64,000 bases of DNA from the NCBI GenBank assembly GCA_016193285.1, contig JACPSL010000018.1, forward strand, positions 91,535-155,534, written 5' to 3'. This DNA comes from Candidatus Melainabacteria bacterium. GTDB lineage: Bacteria; Cyanobacteriota; Vampirovibrionia; 2-02-FULL-35-15. The position numbers and the translations under genes are program-made. Each line of letters begins with the position of its first letter. Within the stretch, counting starts at the first letter, position 1. The notes below the pieces were generated by a model. It did not search any database and was not told where the DNA came from. It saw nothing but the letters and a program-made list of their open reading frames with translations. This document shows, piece by piece, positions 30,449-64,000 of the stretch.

Positions 30449-30572
30449 TGCTTTTAGTCTAGGAAACATTTACCACATTTTATCCAGCACTAAACTTATT
30501 AGTCGATTTAACTTTTATGTAAAAGTGCGAATAATTACTTTATAACAGTAATCATTGCAAGCGAGGAAAAAT

Positions 30573-31166
30573 ATGTTTAAGCATTTAACAAGTTTAATTT
30601 TAGCCTTGATTTTTAGTATACAGTTTATTTGTACAAAGACATTTGCAGAAGTTATAGTTCCTTTAAATGTTACTGTTAATGGATCGTTTGTTATAACTGA
30701 TGCTGCAAATGACAGTATGTCAGGTACAAATCCAACTATAAATGTAAACCTAAATGTTACACCAGATATTGGTGCAGGTACAGTTAATGGTCAAGCTAAT
30801 TTTAGAATAAGAACAAATCGAACTACATGGAGATTAACTACACAAAAAACAGCTACAAATACAGGAGGTACAGGACTTGCAGATACTGATGTTTCTCTTA
30901 TAGTTTCAAAGTCAGCTGGATCTACTGGAAATGCAAATGCTGGTAATCTTGTTGCACCATTTAATGCTCCAACTACAATAGCTTCAATACCAACTGCTAC
31001 AGCTATAGATGTAATTAGTGGTACAGCAAAAACATCAGGTGCAAAAGATGGTACAAATACAAATAACTATTTTCAGGTAAACACAACTTATGGTGTGCAG
31101 CCGGATTTCTTTTATTCACCCGGGACATTTAGTACAACAATTACATACAATTTAGTAAGTCCATAA
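30573..31166 (+). CDS. Fimbrial subunit-like secreted protein, family member 1 (SCPU/Csu-pilin-like). It is the probable major subunit.
   Basis: Signal peptide, then an alternating-hydrophobic strand VPLNVTVNGSFVITDA. NFRIRTNRTTWRLT motif. C-terminal DFFYSPGTFSTTITYNLVSP. GAGG RBS before the ATG at 30573; the ORF track used a TTG at 30555. Confidence 0.5.
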   Translation: MFKHLTSLILALIFSIQFICTKTFAEVIVPLNVTVNGSFVITDAANDSMSGTNPTINVNLNVTPDIGAGTVNGQANFRIRTNRTTWRLTTQKTATNTGGTGLADTDVSLIVSKSAGSTGNANAGNLVAPFNAPTTIASIPTATAIDVISGTAKTSGAKDGTNTNNYFQVNTTYGVQPDFFYSPGTFSTTITYNLVSP

Positions 31167-31175
31167 CGTTTTTAT

Positions 31176-31250
31176 AGAAACAAGGTCACCTTGTCTCTTT
31201 AGTACAAATATCCTTTTATTTAAGTAGAGGCAAGGTAACCTCGTCTCTAC
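31176..31250 (+). promoter_or_regulatory. Two tandem related hairpins between the major subunit gene and the usher-like gene. This is a likely attenuator, and the hairpins are degenerate copies of the GTAGAGACG palindrome family.
   Basis: agaaacaagg-tcac-cttgtctct at 31176-31199 and gtagaggcaagg-taa-cctcgtctctac at 31224-31250. Confidence 0.5.
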
Positions 31251-34749: not shown

Positions 34750-34821
34750 AGCAATCAGCAGTCAGCAGTCAGCAATCAGCAAAATAAAAGAGCTGATAGC
34801 TGAATGCTGATAGCTGATAGC
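34750..34821. repeat. Long imperfect hairpin built from heptamer repeats, (AGCARTC)n facing (GCTGAWW)n. STRR-like; probably a terminator.
   Basis: agcaatcagcagtcagcagtcagcaatcagc aaaataaaagag gctgatagctgaatgctgatagctgatagct. Confidence 0.6.
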
Positions 34822-34936
34822 TTGTTAATCCTAGACTTATCAAATGATTTTTATTTTTTCAGTACTAAATTACTAAGACTTTTTAATTTGATAAAAATAA
34901 TTTTGGGCATGTTATTCTTGCAACAAAAAAACACAT

Positions 34937-41449: not shown

Positions 41450-41527
41450 GTGTCCTAGAAATTAGAAAATCAGAAATCAGAGGATCAGAATGAGAAAAAC
41501 AAATTTAATTATAGCCTACCCTATGTA

Positions 41528-43225: not shown

Positions 43226-43231
43226 GAATTT

Positions 43232-43296
43232 AGACCATAGACCATAGACTAGAGACTATAGACCTTTTTGTGGTCTACGGTCTATGGTCTATAGTC
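43232..43296. repeat. Hairpin composed of heptamer repeats (AGACCAT/AGACTAG/AGACTAT units and their complements). It starts 7 bp upstream of the ilvD start codon.
   Basis: agaccatagaccatagactagagactatagacc tttttgt ggtctacggtctatggtctatagtct. Confidence 0.7.
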
Positions 43297-43402
43297 TTTT
43301 GTCCCAACGTGGTTTTTGATTTCATCTAAGCTATAATCTAACATATAAATTTGAAGAATAACAGTATAAGCATATTTATTTAAATAAAGAAAAAAATATA
43401 AG

Positions 43403-49100: not shown

Positions 49101-49877
49101 ATGTTACATGAATTTGAAAAAGAATTAGTTTATGGCAGAAAGCCTGTTCTAGAAATGCTCCAGCAAAGCGCCTCTACACAAATAAATAAAATTTGGCTAA
49201 GCAATGGTTTTCAGGATAAAAAATTTAAACAATTAATTATTTCTTTTGCAAAAGATAAAAAAATTCCTATTAATTTTGTTCCAGAATCTAGATTAAACAA
49301 TTTAACAATTAACCAAAATCATCAAGGGATTGTTCTAAGCATTTCTCCAATTAATTATTTGTCTGTAGAGACGCTCCACCGGAGCGTCTCTACACCAAAA
49401 ATAATTTTAATTGCTCATGAAATTGAAGATCCTCATAATTTAGGTGCAATGATTAGAACTTTTGTAGCTGGTGGTGGGAAAGGAATAATACTTACAGGCA
49501 GAAAAAGTGTTGGTATAAGTTCGACAGTTATTAAGACAAGTGCAGGTGTTTTGTTTCAAGCAAATTTTGCAAGGGCTACAAATTGTATAAATGTTATTAA
49601 AGAGCTAAAAGAAAAAGGATTTTGGATAGTAGGAACAGATGTTACAAAAAATGCTGAATCAATTTATAAAGTAGACCTGCCAGATCAAATCGCCATCTTA
49701 GTTGGCAATGAGCATGAAGGCTTAAGTAATTTAATAAAAAAGAACTGTGATTTTCTTATAAGAGTCCCTACAAGTAATAAAGTTGATTCATTAAATGTGT
49801 CTGTAGCTTTTGGAATATTACTTTTTGAGTTTCTAAGGCAGAAAAACCTTTTAACAGTAATCAATCCTATATCCTAG
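49101..49877 (+). CDS. SpoU/TrmH-family RNA 2'-O-methyltransferase (RlmB-like).
   Basis: N-terminal substrate-binding domain plus SPOUT motifs LVGNEHEGLS and SLNVSVA. Confidence 0.7.
   Translation: MLHEFEKELVYGRKPVLEMLQQSASTQINKIWLSNGFQDKKFKQLIISFAKDKKIPINFVPESRLNNLTINQNHQGIVLSISPINYLSVETLHRSVSTPKIILIAHEIEDPHNLGAMIRTFVAGGGKGIILTGRKSVGISSTVIKTSAGVLFQANFARATNCINVIKELKEKGFWIVGTDVTKNAESIYKVDLPDQIAILVGNEHEGLSNLIKKNCDFLIRVPTSNKVDSLNVSVAFGILLFEFLRQKNLLTVINPIS
49365..49393. repeat. Perfect 13-bp-arm palindrome GTAGAGACGCTCC-ACC-GGAGCGTCTCTAC inserted in frame in the methyltransferase (encodes VETLHRSVST).
   Basis: Direct reading. The offset from the CDS start is 264, which is divisible by 3. Confidence 0.85.
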
Positions 49878-50792
49878 CTCTTTCATCATTGGTTCAATTA
49901 CTGGATAAGTATTTTTTATAAGATCTATATTTTTTTTCCATTTATCTTTATCTGGCTTTGAGTTTGCATTTACTATTGGAGGAGTCTTGGACAGATCTCT
50001 TAGTCTTTTTGTAAATGGAATATCAATAAAGTCACAAACTTTTTTAACTATCTCATAAGTGTTACAAGAAAGTTCTTCATAAGAAATAAAATATTTTCTT
50101 TGATTTTCAATGGCTTGTAAACCCTCAAGGGCAGCTTTGTTTGAGCTTATCCATTGAAATGCACAAACTTCTTCTAAAGGTTTGTTTGTATAATTTTTCC
50201 AGCCTGGAGGTAGAACAAACTTCCAGACAGTGTCATTGTAACCTTTTATGTTTAATGATACTTGAAGATTTTCTGTCCTTAGATACTTGTTTGGGATTTT
50301 CCATCCTTCAATTAAAGAACTTATGTTTGACCTGCCATCACGTTTAAGAAAAATGAATAAGCAATCTTTAAATAACTTATTTACAAATGGTATCCGATAA
50401 CAATTCTTAGGTGTCTTTTCAACTAGTCTGTATTTTCTTAGAAGAAGATTTTTGTATAAAAGATTTGAAGGAATTATAAGCTTGCTTAATCCTCTAAAGA
50501 AATTATTTTTTAGTATAAATTCCCTGTTAAAATATCCAAGATAATAATTATTTAAAGATTTTTTATGAAACTCATTTAAAATAAAATTCTTGGACTTGTT
50601 ATTTAAGTCGTTTTCACTTAAGATATCATCTTGCAATTCTTTCTTTGTAAGTTGAAAATATAAATCCCAAATCTCATTACTTTCTCTATATAAAGACCAT
50701 AATTCACTACTAGTACTTAATATCCTAAAAAGTAAGCTAGTACCAGATCTTGGGCATCCAACTATTATTACTGGCTTTCTAATCTCTAGCAT
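49851..50792 (-). CDS. Sulfotransferase-family protein.
   Basis: N-terminal PAPS 5'-phosphosulfate-binding loop VGCPRSGTSLL and a downstream RD...S region. It overlaps the 3' end of the previous gene convergently. Confidence 0.55.
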   Translation of the reverse strand: MLEIRKPVIIVGCPRSGTSLLFRILSTSSELWSLYRESNEIWDLYFQLTKKELQDDILSENDLNNKSKNFILNEFHKKSLNNYYLGYFNREFILKNNFFRGLSKLIIPSNLLYKNLLLRKYRLVEKTPKNCYRIPFVNKLFKDCLFIFLKRDGRSNISSLIEGWKIPNKYLRTENLQVSLNIKGYNDTVWKFVLPPGWKNYTNKPLEEVCAFQWISSNKAALEGLQAIENQRKYFISYEELSCNTYEIVKKVCDFIDIPFTKRLRDLSKTPPIVNANSKPDKDKWKKNIDLIKNTYPVIEPMMKELGYRIDYC

Positions 50793-50874
50793 TTTACCTA
50801 TTTTACGCTACTTTTTAGCACTCAGTATAAATTTACTGTCAAAAGATTATTAAGCCTTGCTTTTTATTATTGAT

Positions 50875-51213
50875 ATGGAAAATGACTTACAGCTAGATCA
50901 AAATGAATTAAAAATTGATTCATTTGAAATTTTAAGTAGGTTTATAGATTTATGTAAAAACCATTCTAGAAATAGTCCCTTTAAAATATCACTTTCATGC
51001 TCAGCTGATATTACAGCTGCTGTATATTACTATCGTAAATACCCAAAGGTTGATAATTTTATTTCTGAATGCTTGAACGGTAACTGTGACTATCTACAGT
51101 TAAAGTGGCTAAGATCGACATGGAATGCATTTAGCAAGATGAATGATTTTGAATTGTCTGAACTTGTTATAAATCAAATTACTTTGGTTGCTAATTTAGA
51201 AGAAGAACAATAA
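50875..51213 (+). CDS. Hypothetical protein.
   Basis: ORF only. The track calls a TTG start at 50857. Confidence 0.3.
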   Translation: MENDLQLDQNELKIDSFEILSRFIDLCKNHSRNSPFKISLSCSADITAAVYYYRKYPKVDNFISECLNGNCDYLQLKWLRSTWNAFSKMNDFELSELVINQITLVANLEEEQ

Positions 51214-51223
51214 TATAGGAAGC

Positions 51224-52672
51224 GTGAAAAAGGAACCTCTCTCCAAAAAGCTTACTTTTGGTATCTTTTATTTGCTTTCAAGTTCTTTTGCTACACTTGG
51301 TTTAAATGTAATAACTGTTGGTTTTATCGCAAGAACACTAGGCGTTGAGCAGTTTGGACTTTATTCAGCAATTTTTTCCTTTGTAGGACTTTTTCAATTT
51401 TTCAGTGATTTTGGAATTAACAAAACCTTACTTAAGTTTGGTTCTACAGAAATTAAAAATGCTCAAGCTAGTTTTGGGAATGCACTTTTTGTTAAAAGCA
51501 TTTTAATAGTACCAACAATTTTTTTAGTTATAATTTTTGGACTTATTGCTGGTTATAGAAATAATGAAATAATTATAGTTACTTTTTTTATTATTAGTTT
51601 GATTTTTGATAGCTATGGAACTTTGTTTAGTAGCATTAGAAGAATTTTAGGAAGTTTTAAATTAATCTCGTTTTTTAGAGTGTTGAGAACTTGTTTGAAT
51701 TTAATAATCATTATATGTGCTTTATCAATTAAAAGCTCAGTTTTTTCTCTTGCATTAGCAATTATGATTTTCAGCCTTGTTACTTTTCTTATTTCTTTAA
51801 TTAATACTGTAATGCTACTGAAACCAAAGTTACAGTTAAATCTATTAAATGAATTTTTTAAAGACTCAGTAATATTTAGTTTTAGTGATTTTTTTCTAGG
51901 CATTTATGCAAAAATCAGCACAGTATTATTGTCGTTTTTTAGTGATTTACATTCAGTTGGGATTTATGGTGCTGCAATAAGATTTACAAGAATTGCAAAT
52001 CTTTTACCAAATCAAGTTAAGTTTGCTCTACTACCAACAATGTACAGGTTATTAGGTAACAATAACAATGATACTTACTCTTCAAATGTAAGAGTTTTTA
52101 AGATCTTGTTTAAATACATGACAATTTTTGCAACTCCTCTTGTTATATCAATTTATTTTTTTTCTGATTCAATTATTCATCTTATTTTTGGCAAGAAATA
52201 CGATCTTGCAATTCCACTTGTTAAGTTGTTTAGTTTATTTATTTATTTACGTTTTGTAGAAACACCTTTTAACTTATTTTATATTGCCATGAACAAGCAT
52301 AAAAAGATGGTTTATTTTCAAGGCATTACAAGTGGATTAAGTGTAATTTTGAATTTAATTTTAATTCCTAAGTTTTTTATGTATGGAGCAGCTGCAGCAA
52401 CAATCATAAGCGAAATAGTTTTCGCCTTAATGCTTGTGTTTTCTGGCATTAAATATTCAATATGGGATTTGCAAAATATTTTTGTTTTGTTCTTAAAGCC
52501 TTTAACTTCTGGTTTATTGGCTTTGTTTCTTACATTGTTTTTCCTTAGTAAAATTAATATATTTGTTCAAATCATATTTTTATATGTTAGTTATCTGTTG
52601 TTTCTTTTTGTTACAAGATTATTTAATAAAGAAGATAAAGATCTTTTCATGAAAATCATTGCTAGAGAGTGA
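51224..52672 (+). CDS. Wzx-type oligosaccharide/polysaccharide flippase (MOP superfamily).
   Basis: 482 aa with about 12-14 TM helices and a Wzx-like N-terminus. GTG start with an upstream AGGAAG. Confidence 0.6.
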   Translation: MKKEPLSKKLTFGIFYLLSSSFATLGLNVITVGFIARTLGVEQFGLYSAIFSFVGLFQFFSDFGINKTLLKFGSTEIKNAQASFGNALFVKSILIVPTIFLVIIFGLIAGYRNNEIIIVTFFIISLIFDSYGTLFSSIRRILGSFKLISFFRVLRTCLNLIIIICALSIKSSVFSLALAIMIFSLVTFLISLINTVMLLKPKLQLNLLNEFFKDSVIFSFSDFFLGIYAKISTVLLSFFSDLHSVGIYGAAIRFTRIANLLPNQVKFALLPTMYRLLGNNNNDTYSSNVRVFKILFKYMTIFATPLVISIYFFSDSIIHLIFGKKYDLAIPLVKLFSLFIYLRFVETPFNLFYIAMNKHKKMVYFQGITSGLSVILNLILIPKFFMYGAAAATIISEIVFALMLVFSGIKYSIWDLQNIFVLFLKPLTSGLLALFLTLFFLSKINIFVQIIFLYVSYLLFLFVTRLFNKEDKDLFMKIIARE

Positions 52673-52686
52673 TATGATTATTAAAA

Positions 52687-53565
52687 ATGTCAATTGGTAC
52701 GAAAATAAAAAAATCATCCCGCCTTCCCGAATGGCTCCAGAAGAATGTTTTATTAAGTGAAGAGTCAAGAAAAGTTCATGCTTTAATTCAGGAATTTAAC
52801 TTAAATACAGTTTGTCAAAGCGCTCGTTGTCCAAATAAAAATGAATGTTTTTCAAGCGGTACAGCAACTTTTATGATTAATGGAAATATTTGTACAAGAG
52901 GTTGTACTTTTTGTAGTGTTTTAAAAGGCAAACCTACCATGTTGCCTAATGAAGATGAACCCAAAAATATTGCACTATTAGCTAAAGTGCTTGACTTAAA
53001 ACACATTGTTATAACTTCAGTAAATAGAGATGATTTACCTGATCAAGGTTCCAGTCAATTTGCAAAAACTATTTATGCAATTCGCGGGATAATCCCTAAA
53101 GTAGTAATTGAAGTTTTAACTCCAGACTTTAGAGGTAGCAAAGAATGTATTAAAAGGGTAGTAGACGCTTCTCCAGATATTTATAATCATAATTTAGAAA
53201 CAGTGCCAAGATTGTATCGGATAGTTAGGCCTGGTGCAATTTATAAAAGATCTCTAGAGTTAATAAACTATGTAAAAGATCTAAATCCAAACATAACTAC
53301 AAAGTCTGGAATGATGCTTGGTTTAAGTGAAGAAATAAAAGAAGTTATACAAGTAATTGAGGATTTATTTTTATATAAATGTGATTATCTTACTCTTGGA
53401 CAATATATGCAACCAACACAAGATAGTTGTCCTGTTTTTAGATATCTTAAACCAAGTGAGTTTGAAAACCTAAAAGATATAGCTTTAAAAATTGGTTTTA
53501 AAAAAGTATTTAGCGGACCATTAGTTAGAAGTTCTTATCATGCTGAAAAGTTGCATCAACAGTGA
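52687..53565 (+). CDS. lipA: Lipoyl synthase.
   Basis: CPNKNEC auxiliary cluster motif and CTRGCTFC radical-SAM motif. Confidence 0.85.
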   Translation: MSIGTKIKKSSRLPEWLQKNVLLSEESRKVHALIQEFNLNTVCQSARCPNKNECFSSGTATFMINGNICTRGCTFCSVLKGKPTMLPNEDEPKNIALLAKVLDLKHIVITSVNRDDLPDQGSSQFAKTIYAIRGIIPKVVIEVLTPDFRGSKECIKRVVDASPDIYNHNLETVPRLYRIVRPGAIYKRSLELINYVKDLNPNITTKSGMMLGLSEEIKEVIQVIEDLFLYKCDYLTLGQYMQPTQDSCPVFRYLKPSEFENLKDIALKIGFKKVFSGPLVRSSYHAEKLHQQ

Positions 53566-54743
53566 TGGAAAAGAAACCAAAATATTTGTTAGTTCTTCTC
53601 ATCATGCTTATTTCTTTTTTAAGCCTGGGGATTTCTGTAAGCAAGTTATCTTTAGATAAAGAAGAGCCAAAAATAAAAGAAGAAGAATCTAAAAATATTA
53701 GCGAATCATATTGCACTGCTAAAGTAATAAAAATAATTTCAGACAATGAAGAAGAACTTCCTGGCGGAAACAAACAAAGAGTACAACAATTACTTCTTAA
53801 AATTGTTTCAGGAGTTGATAAAAATAAAAAAAGAGTTACAACTAACATCATCCCTGACAATCCTGCTTTCTCAATTTTTGGTGAGGTTGGAAGAAAATAT
53901 TTAATTACAAAAGTAGAAAACTTAGAAACAGGCAGTGAAGATTATTTCATTATTGATTACTATCGGGAGCATTTTGTCTGGTATTTGTTTAGTGCTTTTT
54001 TAGTTGTGCTTATAGTGGTCGGTGGTGTTAAAGGAATTAGAACAATATTTTCGTTAGCTGCAACAATTTTACTTATTGCATTCTTTTTAATCCCTTGTGT
54101 AATAAAAGGAATTAATCCTCTTTTAATTGCAGTAATAGTTTCATTTCTTGCAACTGCAGTTACAATGATGCTTGTAGCAGGCATTAATGTAAAATCTTTA
54201 GCAAGTACTCTAGGTACTGTTATTGGAGTTAGTTTTAGCGGGTTAATTGCTACAGTTGTAATTAAAACTGCACCACTCTCAGGACTTGCAAGTACTGAAG
54301 CAATGATACTTTGGGGAAACCAACTGTATGAAATAAATTTTAAAGGTTTACTTGCTAGTGGCATGATTATCTCATGTCTTGGAGCAATTATGGATGTAGC
54401 AATTTCAATTTCAAGTTCTATTTATGAAATTAAAACAGCAAATCCAAATTACACTGTTAAAAAATTATTTACATCAGGTATGAATATTGGAAAAGATATC
54501 ATGGGAACTATGACTAATACATTGGTCTTGGCATATACAGGAATGGCATTGCCATTGCTTTTGCTAATTAGCTATGAAAAAAACCCTACTAAGTTTTTAA
54601 ACTTAGAGCTTGTAGTCTCAGAAATAACTGCAGCTATTGCTGGAAGTATTGGACTTGTAATTTCAGTGCCAGTTACTGCTTTAATAATGAGTTTTTTAGC
54701 AGCACGAGCTAGCGAACCGGCGAAGGGACGAACCGGCGATTAG
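53562..54743 (+). CDS. YibE/F-family membrane protein.
   Basis: 393 aa. N-terminal TM, an extracytoplasmic region, then about 8 TM helices; the Gly-rich helices fit YibE/F. The C-terminal codons include a duplicated GAACCGGCGA. Confidence 0.5.
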   Translation: MMEKKPKYLLVLLIMLISFLSLGISVSKLSLDKEEPKIKEEESKNISESYCTAKVIKIISDNEEELPGGNKQRVQQLLLKIVSGVDKNKKRVTTNIIPDNPAFSIFGEVGRKYLITKVENLETGSEDYFIIDYYREHFVWYLFSAFLVVLIVVGGVKGIRTIFSLAATILLIAFFLIPCVIKGINPLLIAVIVSFLATAVTMMLVAGINVKSLASTLGTVIGVSFSGLIATVVIKTAPLSGLASTEAMILWGNQLYEINFKGLLASGMIISCLGAIMDVAISISSSIYEIKTANPNYTVKKLFTSGMNIGKDIMGTMTNTLVLAYTGMALPLLLLISYEKNPTKFLNLELVVSEITAAIAGSIGLVISVPVTALIMSFLAARASEPAKGRTGD

Positions 54744-54750
54744 AAAAAAT

Positions 54751-55404
54751 ATGGATATCCTTGATTACAAAGAATGTGTAACGAAAATATACTTTGTTCG
54801 TCATGGGGAGACAAAAGCAAATAAACTTAGATTATTGTTTGGCCAGTTAGACTTGGATTTAAACAAGCAAGGTTTAAAAGATGCAAGAAGAGTTGCAAGC
54901 AAGTTATTAAAAATTGCAAAGAAAGAAAAAATAAGTTTTATTATTTCAAGCCCTTTAAAGAGAGCAAAACATACAGCAAATATAATCTCACAAGAGCTTG
55001 TAAGGGCAGGCCTTGCGCCTGCCTCTAGAATCATCATAGATAAAAACTTAATGGAAAAATCAGAAGGCACGTGGGATGGGAAAAGTTTTTGGGATGTTAG
55101 ACAAAAAGACCCTAAAAATTATTATTCTTGGGTAAAAGATCCTTTTAAGAACAGGACTCCAAAAGGTGAATCAGTACTTGATTTAAATAAAAGAGTAAAA
55201 AAATTTTATAAGACTGTATTAAAAAAGTATTTAGGTAAAAATATTATTGTAACGACTCACTCAGGACCAATTAGACTTTTTGTCTTAAATTTATTAGGCA
55301 CAAAAATAAATAAGTTTTGGTACTTAAAAACTGAATGTGGCTCTATTACAGAAGTTCATATAAGCAAAAAACATGCAATGATATGGAGTTTAAATGTTAA
55401 TTAA
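54751..55404 (+). CDS. Histidine phosphatase superfamily (phosphoglycerate-mutase-like) protein.
   Basis: IYFVRHGETKAN catalytic RHG motif. Confidence 0.65.
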   Translation: MDILDYKECVTKIYFVRHGETKANKLRLLFGQLDLDLNKQGLKDARRVASKLLKIAKKEKISFIISSPLKRAKHTANIISQELVRAGLAPASRIIIDKNLMEKSEGTWDGKSFWDVRQKDPKNYYSWVKDPFKNRTPKGESVLDLNKRVKKFYKTVLKKYLGKNIIVTTHSGPIRLFVLNLLGTKINKFWYLKTECGSITEVHISKKHAMIWSLNVN

Positions 55405-55418
55405 ATTAATTAAACTTC

Positions 55419-56558
55419 TTACCTTAAGTAATTAAGCGGGTTTTGTGGTCTGCCGTTTTTTCTAACTTCAAAATGTAAGTGTGGTCCAGTTGAATAACCG
55501 GTTTGACCTTCATATCCAACTATATCTCCTTTTGTTATTGTTTTTCCTTTAGAAACATTGTCTCTGCTTAAGTGAGCATAAAGTGTTGAAAAACTCATAC
55601 CATGATCTACAATAACAACTTTTCCATAACCACCGTACCAACCGTTAAAAATTACTCTTCCACTATCTGATGCCATTATTGGTGTTCCAAAAGGTGCAGC
55701 TAGATCTACACCACTGTGAAAACTAACCACTCTAAAAATAGGATGTCTTCTTAAACCAAATGGTGAAGTTAGTCTGCCCATAATTGGATAAGAAAATGCA
55801 CCACTGCCACCTATAAATGAACCTGAAAAATCACTTTCCCCAATAAGTTGGTTTATTTCACTAATAAGCTGCTGAGATTCTCTTTCCAATTGTCTTTCTG
55901 CTTGTTCATAAGCAGCTCTTTCTGTCCGAAGCTTGCTTACTATGTTTGATTGAGCCTTATGTTCTTTAGAAATAAGTTTTTTTTGTTCTTCAATTTCAGT
56001 TACAATATTTGTAAACTTAATTTTTTGTACCGCAAGACGATCTTTATAATTTCCAATTTCCTTGGACTGTTGTTCAAGTCTTTCTAGAAGGTTTTTGTCT
56101 TGTACTACAAGTAATTTTTGATAGTACAGGTAATCTAAAAAATCTGTAAGATTAGGTGTCTTTAACAGAGTTTCTAAAACTCTCAATCTTTGACCTTGGT
56201 AAATTTGTTTAATTCTAGCTGCAGCATCAGTTCTTAAACCTGAATAATCTGTCTTTAGTTCTGAGAGCTTTTCCTCAGTGGATTCAAGATCATTTTGTGT
56301 ACTAGAAAGCTGAAGCTTGTTCCTTTTTAGTTTTTCTTGAGTAGAGTAAAGTTTCTTTTGTATTTCTGTAAGCCTGCCAACTGCAACTTTTTCTTTTTCC
56401 TTAGTTTCTTCTATTTTTTTTCTTAAGTATTCTCCTTTTTGTTCTAAGTCCTTAAGTACCCTTGATTTACTTGAACTCTTCGAATAGGTTGGAAGATTTG
56501 AAAATATAATCAGTAGCAATAAAACTATAGTTAAAAAGATTTGATTTGTTTTCTTCAT
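55419..56558 (-). CDS. M23-family peptidase with a long N-terminal coiled coil (EnvC-like murein hydrolase activator).
   Basis: Signal peptide, about 230 aa of heptad-rich sequence, then a LytM domain HSGVD...GPHLHFE. Confidence 0.75.
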   Translation of the reverse strand: MKKTNQIFLTIVLLLLIIFSNLPTYSKSSSKSRVLKDLEQKGEYLRKKIEETKEKEKVAVGRLTEIQKKLYSTQEKLKRNKLQLSSTQNDLESTEEKLSELKTDYSGLRTDAAARIKQIYQGQRLRVLETLLKTPNLTDFLDYLYYQKLLVVQDKNLLERLEQQSKEIGNYKDRLAVQKIKFTNIVTEIEEQKKLISKEHKAQSNIVSKLRTERAAYEQAERQLERESQQLISEINQLIGESDFSGSFIGGSGAFSYPIMGRLTSPFGLRRHPIFRVVSFHSGVDLAAPFGTPIMASDSGRVIFNGWYGGYGKVVIVDHGMSFSTLYAHLSRDNVSKGKTITKGDIVGYEGQTGYSTGPHLHFEVRKNGRPQNPLNYLR

Positions 56559-56696
56559 GGAATTAAAAATTATTGTTTATTATAAGCAAAAATAAAGAGT
56601 ACTGGAACTACAGAAACCACTAGAAACGATATTAACATAATGAGTACTATGATTCGTGAGTGCTTTCTAAAAAAATCCATCATAAGAGGTATTTTA

Positions 56697-58721
56697 TCAC
56701 GTTTTTGTTTTTGATAATTCTTTTAAAGTGTGCAACTCGTCGCGTAACTTTGCTGCTCTTTCAAAGTCTAATAATAGCGCTGCGTTTTTCATTTGTTGTT
56801 CTACTTTTTTTAATACTCTTGGAAGTTCTTTAAGATCAAGCTTTTCATATGCAAGTTCATCAGCTACTATTTCTTCTATATCTTTGTTTGTGCGCAATGA
56901 TTCAAGTAGTGGATTTGCATGACTTTTAACAATTGTTTTTGGTGTAATATTATGTTCTTTATTAAACTCTGTTTGTAATTTTCTTCTTCGTTCTGTTTCA
57001 TCAATTGCTTTTTTCATTGAGTCTGTAGTTTTATCAGCATAAAAAATTACTTTTCCTGCTGCATTCCTTGCAGCTCTTCCAATCATTTGAATAAGTGCTC
57101 TCTCTGCCCTAAGAAATCCTTCTTTATCAGCATCCATAATACATACAAGAGAAACTTCAGGTAAGTCTAAACCTTCCCGTAAAAGATTTACACCAACCAA
57201 CACATCAAATTCACCTAACCTTAAGTCTCTTAGAATTTCTATTCTGTCTAAAGCAACAATCTCACTATGTAGCCACCGGACTTTTAAATTTGAGCCAGCA
57301 AGATATGCTGTTAAATCTTCAGCCATTCTTTTTGTAAGAGTTGAAATTAGTATTCTTTCTTTTTTTAAAGTCCTGATTTTTATTTCATGAATTAAATCAT
57401 CAATTTGTCCATTAGTTGGTCTTATTTCAATTTCTGGATCAACTAATCCAGTTGGTCTGATAATTTGTTCAACTATTTGCTCACTTATTTTTAATTCATA
57501 ATCTCCTGGTGTTGCACTGACAAAAATTGTTTGTGGAATCCTTGACCAGAATTCATCAGGCTTTAATGGCCTGTTATCCTTTGCACAAGGCAATCTAAAA
57601 CCATATTCAACTAATGTATTTTTCCTGGAAGCATCACCATGATACATTCCTCCAATTTGAGGTATTGTTACATGTGATTCATCAATAAAACATAACCAGC
57701 CATCTTTTCCATATCTTCTATTAAAATAATCAACTAACACTGTTGGCGGCTGACCTGGTTCTCGTCCTTCTAAAATCCTTGAGTAATTTTCTATCCCTGT
57801 GCAGTAACCAACTTCTTTTAACATTTCAAGATCAAACTTTGTTCTTTGCCAGAGTCTTGCTGCTTCGAGATCCTTTCCTTGAGATTTCAAATCTTCATAT
57901 CTTTCTTTTAATTCTTCATTAATTTGCTTGCAAGCTGATTCAATACTTTCTTCATCTGCCACATAGTGTTTTGCTGGATAAATTTTAATTTCAGGAATTG
58001 TTGATTTTACTTCTCCAGAAACTGGATCAATCATCGATAGATTTTCTATCTCATCTCCAAAGAAATCTATTCTTAGAATTTCTTCTTCATATATTGGGAA
58101 AATATCAAGTATTTCTCCACGTACTTTAAATTTTCCACGTGTGAATTCTATATCATTTCTTTCATAGTAAATATTTACTAAACCACGAACCAATTTCTCG
58201 CGATTAATTTCTTGTCCTTTTTTAATTTCTATAGCTGAATCATAATACAGCTCTGGGGTTCCAAGCCCATATATGCAGCTAACGGATGCAACTGTTATCA
58301 TGTCATCTCTTTCAAATATTGAGCGTGTTGTGGAGTGGCGAAGTCTGTCAATCTCATCATTTACACTTGCAACTTTTTCTATATAAGTATCTGTTTGAGG
58401 GATATATGACTCAGGCTGATAATAGTCATAGTAACTTATAAAATACTCAACTGCATTATTAGGAAGAAATTCTCTAAACTCGTTACAAAGTTGTGCTGCA
58501 AGAGTTTTATTGTGAGCAATTACAAGTGCAGGCTTTTGAACTTTTGCAATTATATTTGCAACTGTAAAAGTTTTTCCAGAGCCAGTTACACCAAGTAATG
58601 TTTGATACTTACAACCTTTTTTAATTCCTTCTTCTAGTTCTTTAATGGCCTTTGGTTGATCACCAGCTGGCTTAAAAGGAGCCACGATCTCAAATCTTGA
58701 AGTCTTAGTTGTCATAATCAA
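56697..58721 (-). CDS. uvrB: Excinuclease ABC subunit B.
   Basis: GVTGSGKTFT Walker A, helicase motifs, and a C-terminal UVR domain. Confidence 0.9.
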   Translation of the reverse strand: MIMTTKTSRFEIVAPFKPAGDQPKAIKELEEGIKKGCKYQTLLGVTGSGKTFTVANIIAKVQKPALVIAHNKTLAAQLCNEFREFLPNNAVEYFISYYDYYQPESYIPQTDTYIEKVASVNDEIDRLRHSTTRSIFERDDMITVASVSCIYGLGTPELYYDSAIEIKKGQEINREKLVRGLVNIYYERNDIEFTRGKFKVRGEILDIFPIYEEEILRIDFFGDEIENLSMIDPVSGEVKSTIPEIKIYPAKHYVADEESIESACKQINEELKERYEDLKSQGKDLEAARLWQRTKFDLEMLKEVGYCTGIENYSRILEGREPGQPPTVLVDYFNRRYGKDGWLCFIDESHVTIPQIGGMYHGDASRKNTLVEYGFRLPCAKDNRPLKPDEFWSRIPQTIFVSATPGDYELKISEQIVEQIIRPTGLVDPEIEIRPTNGQIDDLIHEIKIRTLKKERILISTLTKRMAEDLTAYLAGSNLKVRWLHSEIVALDRIEILRDLRLGEFDVLVGVNLLREGLDLPEVSLVCIMDADKEGFLRAERALIQMIGRAARNAAGKVIFYADKTTDSMKKAIDETERRRKLQTEFNKEHNITPKTIVKSHANPLLESLRTNKDIEEIVADELAYEKLDLKELPRVLKKVEQQMKNAALLLDFERAAKLRDELHTLKELSKTKT

Positions 58722-58776
58722 TATAATATTACCCTGAGAAAAGATGAGGGATGAGTGATAAGGTAATATATTACAT

Positions 58777-59700
58777 ATGCCAATTGAAACAAAACCATTA
58801 TCTGAAGCTACATGTAGAGAAGATCTTAAAAAGGTTTGTAACTTGGCCTACAAAAGAGGTTTAGTTTCTGGAATGGAAGGTAATTTTTCTTTAAAAATTA
58901 ACAATGAATTAATTTTAGTTACTCCAAGAAATACTCATAAAGGACTTATTGAAGTATCTGATTTTGTAGTTGTTGACATGAATGGAAACATTATTTCCAA
59001 TGGTAGTAGAGAACTAACTAGTGAACTATCTTTACATCTTGAAGCATATAAGAAGAGAACAGATATCAAAGCAGTTGTTCATGCTCATCCACCTGCTACA
59101 GTTTCTTTTTCAGTTGCTGGTATAGATTTTAATCAACCAGTCATTCCAGAAACAATTGTCCTTCTTGGAGAAATACCTACTGTTCCTTATAGAGAGCCTG
59201 GAACAAATAAGCTGGGAGAACTAGTTGGAGTTTATATTGAAAAACATGATGCAGTTATTTTAGAAAGGCACGGAGTAGTTACAGTTGGAAAAGATATTTT
59301 TAATGCTTATTGTAAGCTAGAGTCTTTAGAACATGCTGCAAAAATAATGTACTTTGCACATACACTTGGCGATATTAAAACTTTAGATGAAGTAGATGTT
59401 AATGAGCTTATAAAACAAAGACATGAAACTTATGGAAAAGAATTAGAAGACAGGGAAGGTAAAAAACTTTTTCAATCTTCATTACAAACATTTAAACTTA
59501 AAAATCTCTTAAAGAAACTTACAGATGGAAATTCTCCCCTTTTCCAAAGGCTTTTAAATCTATCTAATGAATTAATGCTAGCTACTTTACAACGTACAAA
59601 TTATTCCCAAAAACTAACAAGTGATGAAAAAGAACAGCTTGCAAGAGAACTAACAGCATCCTCCTTAAGTATGATATTAGGACGATTTACAAAGACATGA
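58777..59700 (+). CDS. Class II aldolase/adducin-family protein (fuculose-phosphate-aldolase-like) with an approximately 90-aa C-terminal extension.
   Basis: Metal-binding His pattern AVVHAHPP...HG and the class II aldolase fold pattern. Confidence 0.55.
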   Translation: MPIETKPLSEATCREDLKKVCNLAYKRGLVSGMEGNFSLKINNELILVTPRNTHKGLIEVSDFVVVDMNGNIISNGSRELTSELSLHLEAYKKRTDIKAVVHAHPPATVSFSVAGIDFNQPVIPETIVLLGEIPTVPYREPGTNKLGELVGVYIEKHDAVILERHGVVTVGKDIFNAYCKLESLEHAAKIMYFAHTLGDIKTLDEVDVNELIKQRHETYGKELEDREGKKLFQSSLQTFKLKNLLKKLTDGNSPLFQRLLNLSNELMLATLQRTNYSQKLTSDEKEQLARELTASSLSMILGRFTKT

Positions 59701-59723
59701 CATGATAAAATCAAAGTTGAATT

Positions 59724-61031
59724 ATGCTTCTTACAAAAGAATTTCAAGATTTAACTCTTAAAAAGAAAAAGATTGAAAACCCAGCTTTAAAAGATCTTTA
59801 TTTATTTACTGTAAGTCACAAAACAGCTCCAATTCCAATTCGAGAAAAATTTGCTATACCAGAATGTTCCTTAAAAGAAACTTATCAAAATCCTAAAAAA
59901 TATAAATCATTAAAAGCTTTTTTAATTCTTAGTACCTGTAGCAGAACCGAGATTTATTTTGTCTCTGACAATTTAGAACAATCCATTAATGAAATCTACA
60001 TTTTTTTAAATGCTAGTTTAAATATTGAACAAAGGGTTGCTAAGGAATACAGCTCTGTAATTTCTAATATTGAAGTAATTAATCATGCATTTAAGCTAGC
60101 AAGTGGTTTAGATAGTTTAGTAATAGGTGAAAAGCAAATTTTATCTCAAGTAAAAGAAGCTTATTTTTATGCTCAAAAAGAAAAGACATTAAATAAAACA
60201 CTTGAACTTTTATTCCAGAAAATTATTCAGACTGCAAAGGAAGTTCACAAAAATACAAACATTTCAAAAAGTTCACAGTCAATTAGCTCTGCTGCAGTTG
60301 AATTAGCAAATAAGATAGCTGGGCCGCTTAAAACAAAACAAGTGATGGTTTTAGGTGCAGGACGCATGGCAAAACTAGTACTTGAACACATCCTAAAAAT
60401 CAGTGGTTCAAAAGAAACAGTTGTATTGAATAAATCACCTCACAGGATTATAGAATTTCCCTATAAGTATAAAATCGACAGATCAGTCCCTTTTGAAAAT
60501 GTTTATGAAACCATGAATGATGTAGACATTGTAATTGCAGCAACAGGTGCACCTCATTTTATAATTTTTGCAGAGCAGTTTAACAAGGTAAGAAAAAATC
60601 AAAATAAAGAACTTTTTATTTTTGATATATCAATGCCGAGAAATATTGATTCTGAATTTGGGAAACTACCAAATGTTCATCTCTATGATATTGATAGCTT
60701 GCAAACTATTTACAATCAAACAACTACTATAAATATTAAGGATTTAAGTAAGACAGAAGAGATGATCCAAGAAGGAAAAAATAAATTTATTGAGCAGATT
60801 TCAAATCAAAGTGTTCAATTATTAATTAAAGAGCTAAAAGAAAAAGTTGAGAAAATAAGAACAGAAAAACTTATGAAATTTAATAGCAGCAAGTCTACTT
60901 TTACTGCCAAGGAAGTGGAATATATTACAAGGAATATTATTAACAGTATATTCCATACACCAATTACAAATTTAAAAGATTCAACAGGTTCAATAGAGTT
61001 AAAAATAGTAAAAAAATTATTTGATATTTAG
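59724..61031 (+). CDS. hemA: Glutamyl-tRNA reductase.
   Basis: STCSRTEIY active-site Cys motif and the NADPH-binding VLGAGRMAKLV. Confidence 0.8.
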   Translation: MLLTKEFQDLTLKKKKIENPALKDLYLFTVSHKTAPIPIREKFAIPECSLKETYQNPKKYKSLKAFLILSTCSRTEIYFVSDNLEQSINEIYIFLNASLNIEQRVAKEYSSVISNIEVINHAFKLASGLDSLVIGEKQILSQVKEAYFYAQKEKTLNKTLELLFQKIIQTAKEVHKNTNISKSSQSISSAAVELANKIAGPLKTKQVMVLGAGRMAKLVLEHILKISGSKETVVLNKSPHRIIEFPYKYKIDRSVPFENVYETMNDVDIVIAATGAPHFIIFAEQFNKVRKNQNKELFIFDISMPRNIDSEFGKLPNVHLYDIDSLQTIYNQTTTINIKDLSKTEEMIQEGKNKFIEQISNQSVQLLIKELKEKVEKIRTEKLMKFNSSKSTFTAKEVEYITRNIINSIFHTPITNLKDSTGSIELKIVKKLFDI

Positions 61032-61050
61032 TGTTTCTACCTAGAGACTC

Positions 61051-62013
61051 GTGACTGTAAAATCAAAATTAATAATTGGTACCCGCTCTAGCAAGCTTGC
61101 TTGTTGGCAAGCAAATTATGTAAAAGACAAGCTATTAAGATTTTATCCAGAGCTTGAAATTAATTTAAAAGAAATAAAAACAAAAGGTGATCATATTACT
61201 GATGTTGCTCTTTCAAAAGTTGGTGGGAAAGGATTTTTTACAAAAGAAATTGAAGATGCACTTCTTAAAAAAGAAATTGATTTAGCAGTGCATAGCTTAA
61301 AAGATCTGCCAACAAAATTACCAAGCGGACTAAAAATAGGAGCCGTATTAAAAAGAGAGAGTCCACATGATGTATTGATTACAAGGGGTCTGACCCCATT
61401 AAGGGGTCTGCCCCCTTGGGCAAAAATAGGTACTTCAAGCCTTCGTAGAATTGCTCAACTAAAGGCGTTGCGACCTGATTTGGAGTACATTGACCTTCGT
61501 GGAAATCTCGATACAAGGATTAGAAAGCTTGAAGAAGGAAAACATGATGGAATAGTCCTAGCTTACAGCGGGGTAAAACGATTAGGTTTTGAAAACAAGA
61601 TTACTGAACATTTTAACCCAAAAGAAATTTTGCCTGCTATTGGACAAGGAGCACTAGCAATTGAAATCAGAGAAGAAAGAGTAGTAGAAGAACTAATTTC
61701 TAAACTCAATGATCAAGAAACATATTTAAGTTCAATTGTAGAGCGAGCATTTTTAGAAACCTTGCAAGGTGGTTGTCAAGTACCGATTGGCGCTTATTCA
61801 GAAATTGCAAATAATAAAATTACTTTATATGGAATGATTGCAAGTCTGGATGGAAAAAAAATAGTCAAAGACCATAGACTAGAGACCATAGACTATAGAC
61901 TAGAACTAAGAGAACAAAATATAGAGGGTTGTTATAGACTTGGGAAAGAATTAGCAGAAAGGTTACTGCAATTAGGTGGAAAAGAAATTCTTCAAGAGAT
62001 TGTAAGGGTGTGA
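61051..62013 (+). CDS. hemC: Porphobilinogen deaminase (hydroxymethylbilane synthase).
   Basis: IGTRSSKLACWQA, GGKGFFTKEIE, and the cofactor-binding Cys region GGCQVPIG. Confidence 0.85.
   Translation: MTVKSKLIIGTRSSKLACWQANYVKDKLLRFYPELEINLKEIKTKGDHITDVALSKVGGKGFFTKEIEDALLKKEIDLAVHSLKDLPTKLPSGLKIGAVLKRESPHDVLITRGLTPLRGLPPWAKIGTSSLRRIAQLKALRPDLEYIDLRGNLDTRIRKLEEGKHDGIVLAYSGVKRLGFENKITEHFNPKEILPAIGQGALAIEIREERVVEELISKLNDQETYLSSIVERAFLETLQGGCQVPIGAYSEIANNKITLYGMIASLDGKKIVKDHRLETIDYRLELREQNIEGCYRLGKELAERLLQLGGKEILQEIVRV
61869..61910. repeat. Six tandem heptamers (AGACCAT AGACTAG AGACCAT AGACTAT AGACTAG AACTAAG) inserted in frame in hemC (encodes approximately [14 protein letters not shown]).
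   Basis: Direct reading. The units are the same as in the hairpin at 43232-43296. 42 bp equals 14 codons. Confidence 0.85.
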
Positions 62014-62025
62014 TATTGTAGTTAT

Positions 62026-63588
62026 ATGGAACATGGAAAACAAAACAATTCTATTGTATACATTACAGGTGCAGGTCCCGGGGATCCTGGCTTACTAACA
62101 TTAAAGGCTAAAGAAATTATTGAAAGAGCAGATGTTATTGCTTATGATAACTTAGTTTCAAAAGAAATCTTAGAACTTGCCTTGTTTTTAAATAAGGGTG
62201 TAAAAATTGTTTACGTAGGCAAGGTTGGTTATAAGCAAGAAGAGTCAGTTAATCAAGAAAAAATAAATAATCTTTTACTTGAGCTATCTAAGGATTACAA
62301 AATTATTTGCCGTTTAAAAGGTGGCGATCCAAACGTTTTTGGTCGTGGTGGCGAAGAAGCATTGTTCTTAAAGAAAAACAATATAAATTTTGAATTTATT
62401 CCAGGAGTGTCTAGTATTTCTGCTGTTCCTGCTTATAGTGGAATACCTTTAACTCATAGGGATTGTAGTAGCTCTTTTACTGTCATATCTGCTCATGAAG
62501 ATCCATTTGATTTAAATAATTCAATTAACTGGAAAGACTTTGAAGTTGTTAACAATACTCTTGTACTTTTAATGGGGGTTAAGAATCTGCCTAAGATAGC
62601 TGAAAAACTAGTTTCTTTAGGACGTTCTAAAGATACTCCTGTTGCAATAATTTATTGGGGTACGACAAATAAGCAAAAATCAGTTCTTACTACTTTGCAA
62701 GATGTTTCTTATAACATAAAAAGGTATGAGGTTAAAGCCCCTTCAGTGATTATAATTGGTAAGGTAGTTAATTATAAAAGTATATTAGACTGGTTTGAGA
62801 CAAAAACATTGTTTGGGAAAAAGATTTTAATTACAAGATCAAAAGAGCAATCTTTTTCTTTTGTTTCCAAACTACTTGATATGGGCACAAAGCCAATTAA
62901 TTGTCCTATTGTTAGTTATGAAATTGTTGAGAAAGAAATTTACAACAAAAATATTATAAATAATTTGTCAAAGTTTAATTGGATATTTTTTACAAGTCAA
63001 AATGCAGTAAGGTATTTTTTTGAAATTTTAAATAAGAATTATTTTGATTCTAGAGTTCTTGCAAATAATGAAATAGCTGCTGTTGGTTATAAAACAAAAT
63101 TAGAATTAGAGAAACATAATATTAAGCCAGACTTTGTACCAAAGAGGTTTTCATTTGATGATTTAATTAATGAATTATCAGAAAGAATAAATTTAAAAGA
63201 TAAAAAGATTTTACATCCAACGCAGGTAGAGACGTTGCGTGCAACGTCTCTACAGATAACCCATTGGCCAATTTACGAGGCAAATTTTGTAAATGAGTTA
63301 GACCAAGAAATAATAAATCAAATTAAAGAAGGGATAGACGTTATTACTTTTTTTAGTTCAAGTACAGCAAGACATTTTGCAAAATTAATTGAAAAATATG
63401 ATGTAGAGATACGATTAATCGCGTCTCTAACAGCAACAATTGGGGATAAAACCTCAGATACAGTCAAACAATTATTTGGTAAAGTTGATATTATTGCAGA
63501 TCCTTTTACAGAAGATGGTTTAATTAATTCAATGGAAAAATATTATGCAAGATCAAATTCTAAAATCAAGACCAAGACGACTGCGTAA
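62026..63588 (+). CDS. Bifunctional uroporphyrinogen-III C-methyltransferase / uroporphyrinogen-III synthase (CobA-HemD fusion).
   Basis: N-terminal half has IVYITGAGPGDPGLLTLKA (SUMT motif). C-terminal half has the HemD-like fold. 520 aa. Confidence 0.8.
   Translation: MEHGKQNNSIVYITGAGPGDPGLLTLKAKEIIERADVIAYDNLVSKEILELALFLNKGVKIVYVGKVGYKQEESVNQEKINNLLLELSKDYKIICRLKGGDPNVFGRGGEEALFLKKNNINFEFIPGVSSISAVPAYSGIPLTHRDCSSSFTVISAHEDPFDLNNSINWKDFEVVNNTLVLLMGVKNLPKIAEKLVSLGRSKDTPVAIIYWGTTNKQKSVLTTLQDVSYNIKRYEVKAPSVIIIGKVVNYKSILDWFETKTLFGKKILITRSKEQSFSFVSKLLDMGTKPINCPIVSYEIVEKEIYNKNIINNLSKFNWIFFTSQNAVRYFFEILNKNYFDSRVLANNEIAAVGYKTKLELEKHNIKPDFVPKRFSFDDLINELSERINLKDKKILHPTQVETLRATSLQITHWPIYEANFVNELDQEIINQIKEGIDVITFFSSSTARHFAKLIEKYDVEIRLIASLTATIGDKTSDTVKQLFGKVDIIADPFTEDGLINSMEKYYARSNSKIKTKTTA
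63226..63253. repeat. Palindrome GTAGAGACGTTGC-GT-GCAACGTCTCTAC in frame in cobA/hemD (encodes VETLRATSLQ).
   Basis: Direct reading. The offset is 1200 from the CDS start. Confidence 0.85.
63403..63431. repeat. Degenerate copy GTAGAGATACG-ATTAAT-CGCGTCTCTAAC of the same palindrome family, in frame in cobA/hemD (encodes VEIRLIASLT).
   Basis: Direct reading. The offset is 1377 from the CDS start. Confidence 0.7.
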
Positions 63589-64000
63589 AAGTGAGGTAAT
63601 TAGAAACCTTGTTCAGGAGACAATTTTATCTCCAGTACAATTCATAGCCCCAGTCTTTATTCATGAAGGCAATGAGCCTGAAATTAAAATAAATTCTATG
63701 CCGGGGATTTATCAATTTTCTGTAGACAGAACCTTGAAATATGTAGAAGAACTTTTAGAAAATAAAATTAAATCAATAATTATTTTTGGCATACCAAGAA
63801 ATAAAGATAACCAAGCTTCATCTGCTTGGAATGAAAATGGAGTAGTCCAAAAGGCAAATAAAAAAATTAAAGAACACTTTCCAGAAATCTTACTTGTAAA
63901 TGATACTTGTCTTTGTGAATATATGGAGCATGGACATTGTGGAGTTGTAGAGACGCGGTTAACCACGTCTCTACAGAATATAACAATTTCAAATGATCTT
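63545..64000 (+). CDS. hemB: Porphobilinogen synthase (delta-aminolevulinate dehydratase), N-terminal part. The gene continues past the window end.
   Basis: Manual translation MQDQILKSRPRRLRKSEVIRNLVQETILSPVQFIAPVFIHEG...NDTCLCEYMEHGHCG with the Zn-binding CxCx7C region. It overlaps the cobA/hemD 3' end. It is not in the ORF track because there is no stop in the window. Confidence 0.8.
   Translation, partial: MQDQILKSRPRRLRKSEVIRNLVQETILSPVQFIAPVFIHEGNEPEIKINSMPGIYQFSVDRTLKYVEELLENKIKSIIIFGIPRNKDNQASSAWNENGVVQKANKKIKEHFPEILLVNDTCLCEYMEHGHCGVVETRLTTSLQNITISNDL
63947..63974. repeat. Palindrome GTAGAGACGCGG-TTAA-CCACGTCTCTAC in frame in hemB, immediately after the HGHCG active-site motif (encodes VETRLTTSLQ).
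   Basis: Direct reading. The offset is 402 from the hemB ATG. Confidence 0.85.

Follow-up and report, generated by a model that had tools for sequence, protein, structure and literature searches.

The question raised by this locus is what kind of element has come to lie, as a short palindrome read in frame, inside several conserved enzymes. The window that we analyzed is a stretch of 64,000 nucleotides from a Candidatus Melainabacteria bacterium (assembly GCA_016193285.1, contig JACPSL010000018.1, positions 91,535 to 155,534), and the palindromes, of 28 or 29 nt, lie in the genes for RlmB, for a CobA/HemD fusion and for HemB. The proteins of the window are 100% identical to those of a Candidatus Melainabacteria metagenome-assembled genome. 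The original prediction had treated the palindromes as a family that it did not recognize, with the Rickettsia palindromic elements (RPEs) as the only parallel. We conclude, with a probability that we put at about 0.85, that they are double-foot repetitive extragenic palindromes (REPs), the cognate repeats of the REP-associated tyrosine transposases (TnpA_REP, or RAYTs) of subclass 2.4, also called Bertels group 4. The evidence consists of the anatomy of the elements, their hairpin potential, their spread across phyla, their linkage to RAYT genes, their in-frame location in loops and their turnover at orthologous sites.

We searched the window with the pattern GTAGAGACG-N(6-20)-CGTCTCTAC and found three exact matches, with spacers of 10 or 11 nt (the copies that begin at 49365, 63226 and 63947; Table 1), against 0 matches in 100 dinucleotide-preserving shuffles of the window sequence; the prediction of a genuine dispersed palindromic family therefore holds. 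A relaxed scan added three further copies, a degenerate one at 63403-63430 and two intergenic ones (31224-31250 and the decayed 31174-31200), which bears out the suspicion that degenerate copies lie between genes. In all, the window holds six dispersed copies in its 64 kb, four of them intragenic. GTAG...CTAC feet are present in the three intact copies and in the one at 31224, on stems of 13-14 bp, and the three intact copies, folded as single-stranded DNA, reach -10 to -15.7 kcal/mol (z -5.2 to -7.7) in a window with a G+C content of about 32%. Four near-perfect palindromes had been announced in coding sequence; three have perfect termini, but the fourth, at 63403-63430, is degenerate, with 11 of 14 pairs intact, one substitution in each foot and a 3' end that reads CTAA. 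Neither chance nor an assembly artifact accounts for these copies, given the empty shuffles and the presence of palindromes at the same codons in independent assemblies.

Table 1. Palindromic elements of the window, named by the assignment that we prefer, and the genes that host them.
Feature	Position	Strand	Sequence, context or encoded peptide
Double-foot REP, 29 nt	49365..49393		GTAGAGACG CTCCACCGGAG CGTCTCTAC; in frame in RlmB; peptide VETLHRSVST
Double-foot REP, 28 nt	63226..63253		In frame in CobA/HemD, site 1, residues 401-410; peptide VETLRATSLQ
Degenerate REP, 28 nt	63403..63430		GTAGAGATACGATTAATCGCGTCTCTAA; in frame in CobA/HemD, site 2, residues 460-469; peptide VEIRLIASLT
Double-foot REP, 28 nt	63947..63974		In frame in HemB directly after HGHCG-V; peptide (V)ETRLTTSLQ
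Intergenic double-foot REP variant, 27 nt	31224..31250		GTAGAGGCAAGGTAACCTCGTCTCTAC (GTAGAGGC...CGTCTCTAC); downstream of open reading frame 30555-31166
Decayed intergenic copy	31174..31200		ATAGAAACAAGGTCACCTTGTCTCTTT; 8 nt past the stop codon of open reading frame 30555-31166
RlmB, 23S rRNA (Gm2251) 2'-O-methyltransferase	49101..49877	+	Host gene
CobA/HemD fusion (uroporphyrinogen-III C-methyltransferase/synthase)	62026..63588	+	Host gene
HemB (porphobilinogen synthase)	63545..64000	+	Host gene, truncated by the window end

The anatomy is one that has been described. RAYTs of subclass 2.4 are characterized by the motifs NH[IFV]H, WQ and YIxNNP, and their REPs include "double foot" families, in which a 5' GT[AG]G and a 3' C[TC]AC stand on a long hairpin (Quentin et al. 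2018, BMC Genomics 19:475; PMC6006769). The same survey found the subclass to be abundant in Cyanobacteria and Bacteroidetes and scattered in further phyla, and reported that in-frame REP insertions are known and that REPs in unrelated genes may be harmless where they fall in linkers or loops (PMC6006769). The window elements resemble these families in their GT[AG]G/C[TC]AC feet, their long perfect hairpin and their in-frame copies in loops, and the 28-mers that we found beside RAYT genes include the window's own sequence. They differ from what has been published on the hosts of this subclass in that the host is a metagenome-assembled genome (MAG) of Melainabacteria, that no RAYT is seen in the 64 kb, and that the same loops hold different variants across species. 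Because anatomy, size and range match the published double-foot REPs, and because linkage to RAYT genes is found as well, the window elements fit a described kind, and the family is no longer one without a name.

To establish that linkage we relied on two collections. A scan for the double-foot pattern, with one genome per species, gave at least 120 loci (L001-L120); it is a sample and not a census, and holds no Melainabacteria record. Among the matches listed, 6 of the 120 loci contain a RAYT-like open reading frame (ORF), recognized by motif and then by profile search, and a palindrome flanks or lies inside each. These ORFs match the NCBIfam model NF047646, "REP-associated tyrosine transposase", with E values of 6e-9 to 7e-18, below its equivalog cut-off; they score 20.6-22.9 bits with Pfam Y1_Tnp, just under the cut-off of 23; and their sole match in the PDB is 4ER8, the E. 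coli TnpA_REP. Their motifs read NHFH or NHLH, then WQ, then YI(F/R/S/K)NNP or YIIDNP. The second collection reversed the test: it took 80 metagenomic relatives of the RAYT-like ORFs and scored a palindrome inside the gene or at most 400 nt away. A double-foot palindrome was present at 54 of these 80 loci, and the palindromes of 28 or 29 nt (GTAGAGAC-type) numbered 81, with feet GTAGAGACG (52) or GTAGAGACA (16). Beside the RAYT gene of locus L177 lies GTAGAGACGTTGCACGCAACGTCTCTAC, which is the exact reverse complement of window copy 63226-63253, and the RAYT locus L158 contains the intact form of the window's degenerate copy at HemD site 2.

Some RAYT genes are also accompanied by arrays. Seven double-foot copies lie at 57-bp spacing downstream of the gene in L104 (5214-5580), an array that alternates two core variants stands beside it in L169 (97-671), and three copies of one variant lie upstream of it in L153 (3-304).

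These data bear directly on whether the palindromes might be a new in-frame family, similar to RPEs and independent of the known REP systems. Such a family would account for copies that sit in frame in conserved proteins, as RPEs do, and our literature search found no paper that gives the GTAGAGACG/CGTCTCTAC consensus in this context. We nevertheless find the idea scarcely credible, for it is already contradicted by an exact consensus that flanks and inhabits RAYT genes, and the published REPs of subclass 2.4 have the same double-foot architecture, the same size and taxonomic range, and the same habit of lying in frame. RPE-1 elements, at about 100-150 bp, are far longer than REPs, and to our knowledge RPEs are essentially confined to Rickettsia. 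The likeness to RPEs is that a palindromic repeat multiplies in frame inside conserved proteins, which tolerate it at their surface; the window elements differ in their length of 28-29 nt, in their GTAG/CTAC double foot, in sharing no sequence with RPEs and in their occurrence in Melainabacteria and many other phyla, and we do not count them as members. RPEs are also not the only parallel, as in-frame or intragenic REPs have been published (PMC6006769, PMC3733652). The catalog of GTAG- and CGTC-tagged REPs by Di Nocera et al. (2013; PMC3733652) includes intragenic ones in several species; it ties RPE-4 and RPE-6, which are short, to CGTC-tagged and not to GTAG-tagged REPs, and treats RPE-1 as longer palindromic insertions. 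With the GTAG-tagged REPs of that catalog the window elements share the GTAG tag, a short stem-loop, a dispersed distribution, documented copies within the ORFs of known proteins, a division into sub-families whose stems differ by complementary changes, and a TAG in the foot that is a stop in one phase. The tag of the cataloged REPs is, however, unpaired and at one end, on stems mostly of 6-9 bp (PMC3733652), whereas that of the window elements pairs with CTAC on a stem of 13-14 bp; the cyanobacterial families GTAG-12, -15 and -16 are compared here by description and not by consensus sequence. Nor do we count the palindromes among miniature inverted-repeat transposable elements, in which terminal inverted repeats enclose a non-palindromic interior and the target is directly duplicated; the whole element is here one palindrome, and no duplication appears at filled and empty HemB sites or in the flanks of 130 copies.

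The spread of the double-foot consensus is wide. The counts in this paragraph are all among the matches listed in the scan of at least 120 loci, which come from Bacteroidota, filamentous Cyanobacteria, Chloroflexota, Desulfuromonadota, Ignavibacteria, Rhodothermales, Acidobacteriota, Patescibacteria and others. Their feet do not vary and their cores are diverse (10 nt in 92 copies, 11 nt in 32); nearly all cores are themselves palindromic, and 118 of 124 begin with C or T. The sequences on either side of 130 copies are unrelated beyond +/-1, where T stands at -1 and A at +1 in about 50%. Most copies are intergenic, and in a Bacteroidales locus they lie a few bases past stop codons, as in classical REPs; some are found within long ORFs, in either stop-free phase.

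Particular 28-mers recur unchanged across this range. GTAGAGACGTTGCATGCAACGTCTCTAC is identical in Cyanobacteria, Desulfuromonas, Anaerolineales and several metagenomic RAYT loci (L023, L033, L096, L103, L113, L166, L167, L175, L184 and L198), its core occurs with altered feet at HemD site 1 of the Melainabacterium L129, and the cores CGATTAATCG, CAATGCATTG, CACGGCCGTG and CAAAATTTTG recur likewise in unrelated genomes. Identity of this kind across phyla indicates either horizontal spread of the system or a strong constraint on the cores that are allowed.

Within the host proteins the elements are read as parts of loops. Outgroup CobA/HemD, RlmB and HemB proteins, as well as solved structures, lack the palindrome-encoded peptides, and close relatives have empty sites, so that these segments are lineage-specific, as had been supposed. 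HemB gives the clearest comparison: five relatives (L123, L125, L128, L129 and L130) read HGHCGIV-LGDEV-LNDPTL, with the site empty, and the window, L122 and L124 have a palindrome at exactly that Val codon, with a gain of 6-8 residues. Translation and ortholog alignment both confirm that the HemB copy directly follows the HGHCG zinc-site motif. Two further relatives, L121 and L127, have tandem heptamer arrays at the same codon. The RlmB palindrome falls in the linker that joins the substrate-binding domain to the SPOUT domain. Some relatives have a short form or a long native one at this point, and others have palindrome-type peptides (AVETPRRGIST and IETLRQSVST, for example); the window protein is here no longer than E. 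coli RlmB. The palindrome-coded stretch of HemD site 2 likewise has the same length as the non-palindromic stretch in relatives and outgroups. The claim that each copy adds about 10 residues is thus only partly right, as HemB gains about 6-8 over its empty orthologs, and in RlmB and at HemD site 2 the palindrome takes the place of native loop sequence and lengthens the protein little or not at all. An AlphaFold model of the CobA/HemD fusion (mean pLDDT, the predicted local distance difference test, 88) places HemD site 1 in an inter-strand loop with a block pLDDT of 72, in line with the loop location that had been expected, and gives site 2 a block pLDDT of 77.

Translation puts all four coding copies in one common reading phase, as predicted, but only three of them begin with VET, the 63403 copy being the exception. 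Among the three phases one is closed because the foot contains a TAG stop in it. Of the two that are open, the VET phase is used at 7 of the 8 independent sites in Melainabacteria (all but the HemC loop) and by 31 of the 44 copies that lie within RAYT ORFs, against 13 in the other phase; a few of these 44 lie close to the 5' end and might precede the true start. The two phases are about even in long ORFs of other phyla, by a heuristic count among the matches listed, and shared ancestry of copies inflates the apparent preference. The phase bias that had been proposed is therefore real but moderate.

To follow the same loops through related genomes we assembled ten syntenic hemA-hemC-cobA/hemD-hemB loci of Melainabacteria (L121-L130, about 147 kb), picked via HemD. 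Species-variable GTAG...CTAC palindromes occur in these relatives at HemD sites 1 and 2, in an N-terminal loop and at the C-terminus of HemD, in the HemB loop, and in a loop and at the C-terminus of HemC, with feet that include GTAGAGACG, GTAGAGACA, GTAGGGGC, GTAGGGAAT and GTAGAGGC. HemD site 1, compared across eleven genomes, presents a mix of intact, decayed and compound REP copies. L128 and L130 have decayed copies that are still in frame and have lost their palindromy; L123 and L125 have compounds in which an intact REP is followed, after 5 nt, by the right arm of a different REP; and in L126 the REP is interrupted by a 29-nt insert. In the aligned 28-mers of this site, 8 of 13 stem pairs have changed on both sides, and pairing holds in 85% of cells, a share that drops to 32-41% once the partner is slid. 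L121, L129 and the window have variants with a common core, TTGC(A/G)TGCAA, that differ at few positions, some of the differences being symmetric. The intact form of the 63403 copy, GTAGAGACGCGATTAATCGCGTCTCTA(A/C), stands at HemD site 2 in L122 and is found elsewhere in L125, in L158 and in cyanobacteria. In L124 the same 29-mer occupies the HemC C-terminal site and an intergenic site, an identity that is consistent with recent copying. Replacement, decay and compound copies all occur in the same loops, and "insertion" is too simple a word for what has happened in them. We favor turnover at a few permissive loops, in which new REPs would enter or replace old ones, over a series of one-off insertions; the same data may leave room for hairpin-directed self-correction or for some selection on the hairpin.

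REPs are not the only repeats that have been translated in these relatives. The HemC proteins of L125 and L128 contain an insert of about 35 residues, 'HHVIARKLEE...EIASSLPLLAMT', in a permissive place, and C-terminal tails of HemD (P0006, P0007, P0008 and P0012) read 'VIPAKAGIQ' and 'MSFPGLTRESSL'. These peptides indicate that several families of translated repeats exist in these genomes.

A number of observations sit less well with the assignment to RAYT-mobilized REPs, and we gather them here. The in-gene copies of the fetched loci are concentrated in hemC-hemD-hemB, and other genes there have none, a concentration that a model of random insertion followed by a filter does not by itself predict; choosing the loci via HemD inflates this apparent clustering, which may be partly an artifact. 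No clean target-site duplication or exact junction can be read in the filled and empty comparisons of HemB, RlmB and HemD, and the net changes in length are uneven, from +4 to +8 residues down to 0. At the empty HemB sites L125 reads ATTGTACTT and the others GTG C or GTA A, again with uneven insert lengths; a TA or GTAC target is a possibility that we do not claim, the comparisons being too divergent to decide it. The core differs in every window copy, and thus the window gives no sign of recent proliferation. The HuH motif of the RAYT-like ORFs is mostly NHLH, and not the NH[IFV]H published for subclass 2.4. A profile built from these ORFs found no RAYT gene in the 64-kb window, which covers part of a source contig of about 164 kb and little of the whole genome, or in the roughly 147 kb from the ten Melainabacteria loci; the linkage in Melainabacteria accordingly rests on sequence identity with the REPs of other phyla. 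Finally, among the matches listed, the two bases of the innermost pair complement each other in 78 of the 92 cores of ten nt, where a free loop would give about 25%. At the very center these cores have AT in 47 cases, GC in 27, TA in 4 and CG in 0 (AT or GC in 74 of 92). A hairpin with a free loop could be recognized without symmetry that extends to the center of the core.

This symmetry is what one would look for if the palindromes arose, or stayed perfect, in place, through template switching, hairpin-directed mismatch correction or fold-back synthesis, from one ancient insertion per site that then evolved in concert. The shared core of the site-1 variants in the window, L121 and L129, with its partly symmetric changes, would suit such a process as well. 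As a full explanation we hold it to be very unlikely, since it leaves unexplained why the 9-nt feet are identical to those of Bacteroidota and cyanobacterial REPs, the compound copies of L123 and L125 and the split REP of L126 read as successive arrivals, and identical 28- and 29-mers occur at unrelated sites in unrelated phyla. A process of this sort could, however, act alongside RAYT activity.

The concentration in heme-biosynthesis genes raises a different alternative, namely that the hairpins have a function in the transcript or the DNA of the hem operon, for instance as mRNA stabilizers or as sites of processing, translational pausing or protein binding, and are kept by selection. Palindromy is retained at orthologous sites although the proteins are only 57-74% identical, and the arm changes at site 1 are fully compensated; REPs of E. 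coli, moreover, have been reported to affect mRNA stability and translation (background in PMC6006769). Yet the HemB site is empty in five of the relatives and taken by unrelated heptamer arrays in two, copies in L128 and L130 have decayed to in-frame sequence that is no longer palindromic, and other phyla have these 28-mers as ordinary repeats that lie between genes or are linked to RAYTs. Imperfect cores, too, contain A.C mismatches (18) as commonly as G.T mismatches (16), a count in which the strand relative to transcription is uncontrolled, so that there is no wobble signature of the kind that selection at the RNA level would leave. With the clustering itself inflated by the choice of loci, we regard selection for hem-operon function as an unlikely account of the family, and return to double-foot REPs of subclass 2.4 as the assignment that we prefer.

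TnpA_REP/RAYT proteins are HuH/tyrosine nucleases that act on single-stranded DNA and are kin to the transposases of IS200/IS605. We infer that such an enzyme catalyzed the movement of the palindromes and that a RAYT is present in this genome now or was formerly. The RAYT would bind the folded hairpin together with the foot on single-stranded DNA, probably at replication forks, and would cut and rejoin beside the hairpin, by which REP copies could be spread or exchanged; because the element is symmetric, either DNA strand could be processed. RAYT biochemistry is available only for the E. coli, S. maltophilia and Marinomonas enzymes (PMC8266576). A copy that arrived in a gene would survive if the net change (28 nt plus small trims) kept the frame, if its phase were one of the two without a TAG stop, and if it fell in a surface loop or linker able to tolerate about 8-10 residues. 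Such a survival filter, combined with new REPs that enter or replace old ones, would explain the varied occupancy of the RlmB, HemC, HemD and HemB loops.

A bolder suggestion, which we offer tentatively and think rather doubtful, is that a few loops serve as long-lived "landing pads", in which one REP after another of equal length takes the place of the resident one through a foot-to-foot, cassette-like exchange at GTAG/CTAC. If this were true, a loop would stay a perfect 28-nt palindrome, in frame, past a divergence that randomizes neutral sequence. In a stronger version the hairpins would have been co-opted in the hem operon transcript. Under either version, the REP/RAYT system would be a source of recurrent, length-preserving loop replacement in essential enzymes.

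Other small repeats of the window deserve mention beside the REPs. Within hemC (ORF 61051-62013) an in-frame tandem heptamer array, (AGACYAK) x ~6 at 61869-61913, supplies about 9 residues that orthologs lack, and its heptamers contain TAGAGAC, which resembles a REP foot. Heptamer arrays also occur at 34750-34822 (AGCAATC, AGCTGAT) and at 41457-41498 (AGAAATC-like, a unit found in the HemB of L127), and inverted arrays of one heptamer (TAGACCA / TGGTCTA) at 43231-43264 and 43271-43297 form a long intergenic hairpin. Elhai and colleagues reportedly gave, in 2008, the consensus of eight small dispersed repeats (SDRs) of cyanobacteria, hairpin-type mobile repeats of 21-27 nt. The SDRs are said to show compensatory stem changes, nested insertions and association with tandem heptamers (short tandemly repeated repetitive sequences, STRRs), and their movement has reportedly been proposed to proceed through RNA intermediates and not through RAYTs. 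Compared by description only, SDRs and heptamer STRRs resemble the present elements as tiny hairpins, and heptamer arrays occupy the same loops here. In an ORF at 8532-9680, a homolog of cystathionine gamma-lyase/synthase, a 20-nt palindrome, GGGCGGATGGCCATCTGCCC, lies at 9019-9038, with 75% G+C in a 32% G+C genome. An in-frame insertion of 4 residues (RADG), apparent on comparison with solved homologs such as 6K1O, falls at the same place. The element has the look of another small palindrome, different from the REPs, that is translated as part of an enzyme.

What is new in these results is the host lineage, Melainabacteria, and the notably high share of copies that are translated within loops; our literature search found no report of these repeats in Melainabacteria. 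The finding extends REP/RAYT subclass 2.4, a known and little-studied system, to the non-photosynthetic sister lineage of the Cyanobacteria, and it provides an unusually clear case of 28-nt hairpins translated as loops of essential enzymes, in the linker of RlmB, in two loops of HemD and in the loop of HemB by the zinc site. It also has a practical use in annotation, as it accounts for the recurrent 'VETxxxxSLQ', 'xRDxxxxVST' and 'VGAxxxxPLQ' peptides in MAG proteins and for short spurious ORFs. Comparative data on loop occupancy are absent from the literature that we consulted, and the loops described here constitute a natural experiment on whether REPs target existing REPs.

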